From Escherichia coli (GTDB lineage: Bacteria > Pseudomonadota > Gammaproteobacteria > Enterobacterales > Enterobacteriaceae), in assembly GCF_003334765.1 (NCBI RefSeq), contig NZ_QOWT01000019.1: a stretch of 64,000 nucleotides of DNA. One strand, written 5' to 3'. Made by a program: the position numbers and the translations under genes. This document shows, one piece after another, positions 20,563-20,737 of the stretch; within the stretch, counting starts at the first letter, position 1; each line of letters begins with the position of its first letter. The notes under the pieces were generated by a model, which was not told the origin of the DNA, ran no database searches, and saw nothing but the letters and a program-made list of their open reading frames with translations.

Positions 20563-20737
20563 CTACTCCACTCCTGCTATGCTTAAGAAATTATTCATAG
20601 ACTCTAAATAATTCGAGTTGCAGGAAGGCGGCAAACGAGTGAAGCCCCAGGAGCTTACATAAGTAAGTGACTGGGGTGAACGAATGCAGCCGCAGCACAT
20701 GCAACTTGAAGTATGACGAGTATAGCAGGAGTGGCAG
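20563..20737. repeat. ERIC (enterobacterial repetitive intergenic consensus) element filling the dxs-yajO spacer
   Basis: Core GTGAAGCCCCAGGAGCTTACATAAGTAAGTGACTGGGGTGAACG matches the ERIC consensus; flanked by ~13-bp terminal inverted repeats (CCACTCCTGCTAT / TATAGCAGGAGTGG). Confidence 0.8.

Follow-up and report, generated by a model that had tools for sequence, protein, structure and literature searches.

Elements of the ERIC family, also known as IRU or RU-1, are sequences of 127 bp with TA at their ends, terminal inverted repeats and a conserved core, which lie in transcribed intergenic positions, occur in several copies per genome, are present in some strains and absent from others, and can carry an internal insertion of about 78 bp, which gives a long form (Sharples & Lloyd, 1990; Hulton et al., 1991; Wilson & Sharp, 2006). 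The copy considered here, which lies in the spacer between dxs and yajO in a 64,000-nucleotide stretch of Escherichia coli DNA (contig NZ_QOWT01000019.1 of assembly GCF_003334765.1; the whole stretch is called the window below), shares all of these properties and differs in having G for T at its third base (TAGACTC), a change that destroys the inward-reading TATACT at the left end. An ERIC element that acts on mRNA stability has been described in Yersinia (De Gregorio et al., 2005, as related in PMC2229807 and PMC10969869), and as far as those accounts go it is likewise co-transcribed, folds into a long hairpin and lies just past a stop codon. The dxs–yajO copy differs from it in that a Rho-associated RNA 3′ end lies at the foot of an enclosing host stem and in that the element, 39 nt past the stop codon, is too far away to be unmasked by ribosomes. 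A further system is the coupling of translational repression to Rho in 5′ leaders (Adams et al., 2021), with which the present locus shares a predicted occlusion of the Shine-Dalgarno sequence, a Rho-associated 3′ end near the start codon and a rise of the reporter in a rho mutant. The yajO leader was itself tested in that study, which gives its 3′ end and the effect of Rho; the structure and how far it is conserved, the ERIC element and the sigma-S-type box are not reported there.

The Correia elements (CREE/NEMIS) of Neisseria resemble the present case in that RNase III-dependent RNA products arise at the element. The terminal bases of Correia elements supply a −10 hexamer that fires together with adjoining host sequence. 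They belong to another family and differ in that the promoter at dxs–yajO would face into the element and give rise to an antisense RNA, and in that the substrate of RNase III here is apparently a sense-antisense duplex and not the hairpin of the element itself. Both Shine-Dalgarno-sequestering, Rho-coupled leaders and promoters at the ends of miniature elements are known kinds, and the context is only modestly new: as far as the literature searched shows, what had not been made is the link between an ERIC element, a conserved bifunctional hairpin and three published observations in strain K-12. The account that we put forward, to which as a whole we assign a probability of roughly 0.6, is that the ERIC element entered an older host hairpin that hides the Shine-Dalgarno sequence of yajO, that this hairpin would lead to Rho termination, that transcription from a sigma-S-type promoter would escape it, and that the junction between element and host forms an antisense promoter.

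The identity of the element is not in doubt: it is a canonical ERIC miniature transposable element, of a kind already known, and it has the tested features of the family, with mixed evidence for the TA duplication only. The window and E. coli K-12 MG1655 share the same sequence over the 381 bases tested, and window position p corresponds to 458,874 − p in NC_000913.3 and to 458,098 − p in U00096.2, conversions that were confirmed by gene coordinates. The spacer extends from 20560 to 20738 (179 nt). The original prediction had read all of it as ERIC, beginning 4 nt after the dxs stop codon, and as probably part of the dxs 3′ untranslated region (UTR). Its identification of the element was correct, and the element is indeed transcribed, within the dxs 3′ region and the yajO leader, but its limits have to be redrawn. 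A search with 20598–20724 returned full-length matches (1–127, 92–95%) at other loci in genomes without the dxs–yajO copy, and alignment with the copies at four other E. coli loci (yafP–prfH, ybhJ–ybhI, yeiS–preT and pgk–fbaA, each with 40-nt flanks) put the limits of homology exactly at these two positions, with unrelated sequence on either side, so that the match covers the full 127 bp and not merely the short core. The element fills 127 of the 179 spacer bases, starting 39 nt past the dxs stop and ending 14 nt ahead of the yajO ATG; its left end reads TAGACTC, compared with TATACTC in the four aligned copies, and its right end GAGTATA. The two halves of the core, 20639–20660 on the minus strand and 20661–20682 on the plus strand, each match a standard ERIC-PCR primer with one mismatch, against no match in 100 shuffles, and we take these primers, whose sequences co-occur in 246 papers, to be those named ERIC1R and ERIC2. 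TA is present at both termini, as in the ERIC features of Table 1 in PMC2229807, and by megablast ERIC copies are found in a median of 6 places per E. coli genome. In Rfam, no family, ERIC or other, reaches its gathering score at the spacer. The model RF02818 (V_AS5, Vibrio RNA AS5) aligns at 20597–20720 over model positions 1–129 with E = 1.4e-9 and 52.5 bits, below its gathering score of 96, so that the element is a relative that falls outside this family; ERIC has been reported in Vibrionaceae as well as Enterobacteriaceae, with which the match agrees. For the long-ERIC, Enterobacter and empty loci, Rfam gave no match at E ≤ 0.01.

The terminal inverted repeats of about 13 bp that had been thought to bracket the element turn out to be something else. 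The terminal repeats of the ERIC itself are 20598–20622 and 20700–20724 and are 76% complementary, while the repeat that surrounds the region is a 16-nt inverted repeat (94%) at 20568–20583 and 20719–20734. The latter consists of host sequence throughout its left arm and over 10 of 16 nt in its right arm, and this host sequence is also seen in ERIC-free alleles and in other genera. These are the arms of a conserved host hairpin that pair an anti-Shine-Dalgarno sequence with the Shine-Dalgarno sequence of yajO, and it is this hairpin that closes the structure. The RNA of the whole spacer folds with −80.4 kcal/mol (z = −7.9; none of 200 shuffles as stable).

The copy is polymorphic, as the original prediction had expected of ERIC copies. 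Among 5426 complete E. coli genomes, 2844 have a filled allele, which is the 127-bp element in about 2721 genomes and a long form of 205 bp, with 78 extra bases within the ERIC, in 123; the site is empty in about 2582 genomes (~48%). Comparison of spacer lengths across genomes shows the corresponding difference, with the flanks of empty alleles matching across a span that is 125 bp shorter, and the two empty alleles that were retrieved and aligned, those of CFT073 and O157:H7, have a 54-nt spacer (TCCCTACTCCACTCCTGCTATGCTTAAGAAATTATTCATGGCAGGAGTGGCAGC). The long form is also found at the same site in E. albertii, 98% identical to the long allele of E. coli and with the same unusual TAGA left end. 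We propose that a TA high in the older conserved hairpin served as the insertion site of the ERIC. The junctions of the filled K-12 allele (CA-TA-GAC...GTA-TA-GCAGG) are as a TA duplication predicts, the net gain of 125 bp being equal to 123 + 2; precise removal of the ERIC from the MG1655 junction sequence would give TTCATGGCAGG, and the predicted insertion target, CATAGCAGGAG, is present in Cedecea. The empty alleles of E. coli, however, read CATGG and not the CATAG expected from TA duplication, some filled alleles have GTATGG at the right junction, and both the junction bases (TATAG, TATGG, CATGG) and flanking single-base differences are mixed among alleles. A separate event may be seen in Enterobacter sp. 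Ag1 (locus L020, 2254–2436), where a divergent ERIC, colinear end to end by alignment, lies in the same spacer at another point, upstream of the conserved box discussed below, and part of the anti-Shine-Dalgarno arm has been lost.

The host hairpin predates the ERIC, as judged by comparison of genera. The comparison is based on a scan for the Dxs C-terminus with one genome per species, which found at least 80 loci, those listed including none from Salmonella, Klebsiella pneumoniae or E. fergusonii. The listed loci yielded 22 ERIC-free sequences with yajO after dxs, from more than 15 genera of Enterobacteriaceae (including Citrobacter, Leclercia, Enterobacter, Pseudocitrobacter, Kluyvera, Pseudescherichia, Cedecea, Pluralibacter, Phytobacter and Superficieibacter), with spacers of 54–65 nt. 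All 22 spacers have the same plan, (C)GCTCCTGCTATGCTTAA followed by a variable loop and (T)AGCAGGAGYGGAACC-ATG, and for seven of them the predicted fold is this one Shine-Dalgarno-sequestering hairpin (z between −5.3 and −8.4; 0 of 200 shuffles as stable). In our alignment of these sequences (A3), positions 18–28 pair with 57–67 in 91–100% of cases. Seven of the pairs never vary because they consist of the Shine-Dalgarno sequence and its complement, and the two basal pairs occur as CG, UA or UG and as GU, GC or AU, with a covariation score that is matched by 1 of 500 shuffles. The Shine-Dalgarno AGGAG lies 7 nt ahead of the yajO ATG, and in read-through RNA its predicted probability of being unpaired is 0.000 whichever of the three alleles (empty, 127-bp or long) is present. 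This probability is 0.37–0.96, mostly above 0.4, in RNA of the empty allele that starts within the loop, and 0.24–0.66 in RNA of the filled allele starting at 20590. The ERIC sits in the top of the hairpin, and its last bases rebuild the upper stem, with the result that the closing helix is kept: it measures 19 bp with the element, and 16 bp plus 2 past a bulge without it. In Pantoea and Erwinia (loci L031, L036 and L030; first 100 nt after dxs), the box CCTGCTATGCTTA and the arm AGCAGGAG are likewise retained, and an additional GC-rich hairpin (GCTCCCC-loop-GGGGAGC) stands between the dxs stop and the box.

Published RNA ends place the strongest sense 3′ end at the foot of this structure. Term-seq gives an end at 438135(−), window position 20739, with 38,352 reads, 3 nt beyond the last paired base (Adams et al., 2021). 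In the same data this end has a Rho score of 2.89 ("Yes") and an intrinsic-terminator score of 1.03, where the threshold is 3.0, it lies inside a significant region of Rho termination, and a fusion of the yajO 5′ UTR and open reading frame (ORF) is more than 2-fold up in rhoR66S. The segment from the start of that fusion at 20567 to the 3′ end at 20739 is essentially the entire hairpin. The original prediction had suggested that the long hairpin could affect termination or mRNA stability, and of this the part that stands is the strong 3′ end at the hairpin foot; intrinsic termination does not. That the ERIC hairpin might be the intrinsic terminator of the xseB-ispA-dxs operon would be in keeping with a very stable hairpin right after dxs and the strong 3′ end at its foot. 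The spacer, however, contains no predicted terminator-like site and no U-tract follows the stem (GGCAGCAUGCAAUAC), and these features, together with the low intrinsic score, the Rho score and the response of the reporter to rhoR66S, make this explanation extremely improbable.

It also has to be considered that the element acts as reported in Yersinia, where an RNase E site in a terminal repeat is unmasked by terminating ribosomes, which here would destabilise the dxs mRNA relative to that of yajO. Co-transcription of the ERIC with both genes is consistent with such a role, which in the reviews that we consulted is the sole ERIC function with experimental support. At dxs–yajO, however, the distance of the element from the dxs stop codon puts it out of reach of terminating ribosomes, the outer host stem would keep the structure closed, and in a K-12 per-gene read table yajO is far below dxs and not above it, and we therefore regard a Yersinia-type mechanism as unlikely. 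A second RNA end lies within the element, a TEX-enriched 5′ end at 437453 in U00096.2 (Kim, 2012), equivalent to 20645 and represented by 19 reads. It coincides with the base at which the central hairpin of the ERIC begins and has no recognisable −10 sequence upstream, and we suspect a protected processed end. RNase III cleavage described as "5′ of yajO" by Gordon (2017) was considered as additional support and set aside, the actual site being yajQ–panE and "yajO" a slip in that Discussion. The hairpin cleaved there is probably one seen elsewhere in the window, at 14269–14316 in the presumed panE–yajQ spacer, whose 18-nt arms are perfectly complementary and enclose a loop of 12 nt.

The 5′ arm of the host hairpin has a second potential function. 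It contains an invariant box whose 11 positions all agree with KCTAYRCTTAA, the sigma-S −10 consensus of Weber (2005) as cited in PMC5650638. The box is the sole match to this consensus in the window, where 0.14 are expected by chance, and is followed by an A/T-rich stretch. In the alignment A3, no sequence departs from CTCCTGCTATG or from either T of TT(AA), and the intervening C is replaced in Phytobacter only. On the opposite arm, the partners of the box TATG pair in no more than 36–59% of sequences; the box is invariant while its pairing partners vary, and pairing therefore does not explain its conservation. From its position we predict a yajO transcription start at about 20590. Published expression data agree with a sigma-S promoter that lies between the two genes and serves yajO independently: loss of rpoS lowers yajO 34-fold in O157:H7 EDL933, whose serotype has the empty allele, and to 0.10 of wild type in Salmonella 14028, where the adjacent dxs is unchanged (1.46), and in K-12 yajO is listed as sigma-S-regulated. 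A chromatin immunoprecipitation sequencing (ChIP-seq) peak of sigma-S RNA polymerase at 437329–437469 (U00096.2; 20629–20769 in the window) has been assigned to yajO. We also considered the box as a sigma-70 extended −10 (TGcTATGCT) and rejected this reading, as the 11-nt sigma-S match and the rpoS data fit better. The start at 20567, which is where the primer used by Adams et al. (2021) for the "entire 5′ UTR" of yajO begins (TCCACTCCTGC), may be served by another sequence, the extended −10-like TGgCATAAT that overlaps the dxs stop codon 7 nt upstream and is kept in some genera only. A consensus promoter scan, which demands a −35 match, found neither the box nor the antisense promoter described next, and the original prediction had passed over both. 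The only site returned by the scan was TTAAGA-18-AATAAT (20583–20612, plus strand, 9/12) across the left host/ERIC junction, which no published 5′ end fits.

The right junction of the element appears to form an antisense promoter. The last six nucleotides of the ERIC, read on the minus strand, provide the hexamer TATACT, and host sequence adds the extension TGc. The published antisense start of Thomason at 437386(+), which is 20712, lies exactly 7 nt downstream of the hexamer, and the antisense operon of Conway (437387–437951 in U00096.2) starts at 20711, both as given in the Huang (2020) supplement. At the corresponding position the other genera have no −10-like hexamer, and the minus strand of the empty allele reads CTGCCATGAATAAT; the promoter may depend on the ERIC. 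Among the matches sampled, the right junction of filled alleles reads TATACT on its minus strand, as in K-12, in about two thirds of cases and CATACT in about one third. All the aligned ERIC copies have TATACT at each end when read inward, which gives the family a pair of −10-like hexamers that face inward; in the dxs–yajO copy and its E. albertii counterpart, the left hexamer is disrupted (TAGACT).

An antisense RNA from this start to its Term-seq 3′ end at 438373(+) (Adams et al., 2021) overlaps the ERIC and the left hairpin arm as well as the final 59 nt of dxs. Within the span of this RNA, between its start at 20712 and its 3′ end at 20501, fall the limits of S-43, an RNase III double-stranded RNA (dsRNA) cluster captured with p19 (20519–20705), labelled "New AS" by its authors and fourth most abundant in their top-20 table of clusters overlapping protein-coding genes. 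The alternative is that these dsRNAs were cut by RNase III from the intramolecular ERIC/host hairpin and not from a sense-antisense duplex, given that the sense RNA would by itself fold into a rod some 170 nt long, closed by a helix of 19 bp, and that ERIC was never considered by the authors, the word being absent from their paper. We find this unlikely, since the longest unbroken helix is of about 19 bp and the remainder is interrupted by loops, the authors state that their method is blind to cleavage in intramolecular structures, and the limits of the cluster match the antisense start and 3′ end and reach into dxs beyond the hairpin.

Based on these data, we put forward the following hypothetical mechanism for the locus. 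In RNA that is read through from dxs or begun at 20567, the anti-Shine-Dalgarno arm would pair with the Shine-Dalgarno sequence, leaving yajO untranslated. The untranslated yajO would then be subject to early Rho termination, followed by exonuclease trimming back to the hairpin foot at 20739, and the hairpin would become the protected 3′ end of the dxs message. A sigma-S transcript from about 20590 would not contain the anti-Shine-Dalgarno arm and would be translatable, such that yajO could be expressed alone in stationary phase. We know of no ligand or trans-acting factor that opens the yajO hairpin. In K-12-type alleles the sigma-S transcript would hold the ERIC from its ninth base, and the element would stretch the hairpin from about 50 to about 170 nt with the closing stem unbroken; because this stem is preserved, we propose, the insertion has been tolerated and is polymorphic. 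What the ERIC would add in these alleles is a 127-nt structured insert in the yajO leader and an antisense promoter, with the RNA from 20712 pairing with the sense RNA to give dsRNA that is cut by RNase III.

Several points weigh against this mechanism. The stem pairs are mostly invariant, the Shine-Dalgarno sequence being itself constrained, and this makes for thin covariation support. The folds are all in silico and at equilibrium, and about 150 nt of transcription separates the two arms when the ERIC is in place, which may alter co-transcriptional folding. For the sigma-S promoter, there is no published 5′ end at about 20590, the K-12 5′ ends that we traced being 20567 and 20645; the ChIP-seq peak lies 50–190 bp downstream of the box, over the antisense TGcTATACT, and is not strand-specific, and it cannot be credited to either promoter alone; and the Salmonella expression data are tied to the box through its invariance in the 22 related ERIC-free sequences aligned. 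Moreover, that half of E. coli is without the ERIC argues for little essential contribution of the element.

This last point leads to the principal alternative, in which the ERIC is a neutral passenger, a selfish and harmless insertion, with the control by hairpin, Rho and sigma-S being the same whether or not it is present and the antisense RNA being noise. The high proportion of empty sites, the same predicted Shine-Dalgarno sequestration in all three alleles, the strong rpoS dependence of yajO in the ERIC-free O157:H7 and the greater age of the host hairpin and box are all as this view would have it. Set against them are the antisense start and dsRNA cluster, which are among the strongest in their respective data sets, the 127 nt that would be added to any leader begun at the sigma-S box, and the retention of the same insertion or allele in E. 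albertii at 98% identity, none of which shows an effect on fitness. We consider a passenger possible, at odds clearly short of even. At the opposite extreme, the ERIC could be a maintained regulatory allele, whose sigma-S-type antisense promoter and longer yajO leader shift the balance of dxs and yajO in stationary phase. We hold this to be improbable; if it were true, the approximately 50:50 split between filled and empty alleles and the near-identical allele of E. albertii would reflect selection or repeated exchange of alleles and not drift.

The features on which the proposed mechanism rests are collected in Table 1 together with the neighbouring genes. Both genes serve the formation of 1-deoxyxylulose 5-phosphate (DXP), to which the product of yajO, the neighbour of dxs, provides an alternative route. 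Two other RNA-related features were noted in the window. Immediately after the yajO stop codon there is a REP-like palindrome (21721–21789, minus strand) that Rfam matches weakly to naRNA4, short of the gathering score (24 bits, E = 0.49), and the small RNA sraA at 57–153 on the plus strand (73 bits) is the sole Rfam family above its gathering score in the window.

Table 1. Coordinates of the genes, sequence elements and RNA features at the dxs–yajO locus, in window positions.
Feature	Position	Strand	Basis or remarks
xseB	17531–17773	+	
ispA	17773–18672	+	
dxs	18697–20559	+	stop codon TAA at 20557–20559
Extended −10-like TGgCATAAT, candidate promoter for the 20567 start	20552–20560	+	overlaps dxs stop; 7 nt upstream of published yajO 5′ UTR start at 20567; kept in some genera only
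5′ arm of host hairpin, anti-Shine-Dalgarno CUCCACUCCUGCUAUGCUU	20566–20584	+	inverted repeat, minimum-free-energy folds, ERIC-free E. coli alleles, 22 sequences
Invariant sigma-S-type box GCTATGCTTAA	20576–20586	+	hexamer TATGCT at 20578–20583, C at −13, TG at −15/−14; sigma-S −10 consensus KCTAYRCTTAA, 11/11
ERIC (IRU) element, 127 bp, TAGACTC...GAGTATA	20598–20724	.	full-length homology to other loci
ERIC core GTGAAGCCCCAGGAGCTTACATAAGTAAGTGACTGGGGTGAACG, 44 nt	20639–20682	.	central hairpin 20645–20658 / 20663–20676; spans ERIC1R and ERIC2 primer sites
3′ arm of closing stem: last 9 nt of ERIC (to 20724), then host GCAGGAGUGGCA	20716–20736	+	yajO Shine-Dalgarno AGGAG at 20727–20731
Putative antisense extended −10 TGcTATACT	20719–20727	−	hexamer 20724–20719 is the reverse complement of the last 6 ERIC nt; TGc 20727–20725 is host
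Antisense RNA	20501–20712	−	start site to Term-seq 3′ end 438373(+) (Adams et al., 2021); overlaps ERIC, left arm and last 59 nt of dxs
yajO	ATG 20739–20741, stop 21713	+	ORF and translation; 20739 is also the dominant sense RNA 3′ end
Peak of published Rho termination region, 438058(−)	20816	+	77 nt into the yajO ORF; Adams et al. (2021), supplementary file 2

The essence of our proposal is that a simple sequence explanation may be available for three K-12 observations that had not been connected, namely a Rho-associated 3′ end, the start of a "new antisense" RNA and an abundant dsRNA cluster; ERIC is not mentioned in the accessible publications that report them. It should be noted that what is read from one sequence as a terminal inverted repeat can be a structure of the host, which in this case is a conserved hairpin whose 5′ arm is also sigma-S promoter-like. 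The uncoupling of yajO from dxs would be of some interest for isoprenoid engineering. With about half of E. coli being without the ERIC, results obtained with K-12 at this locus may not hold in other strains of the species.

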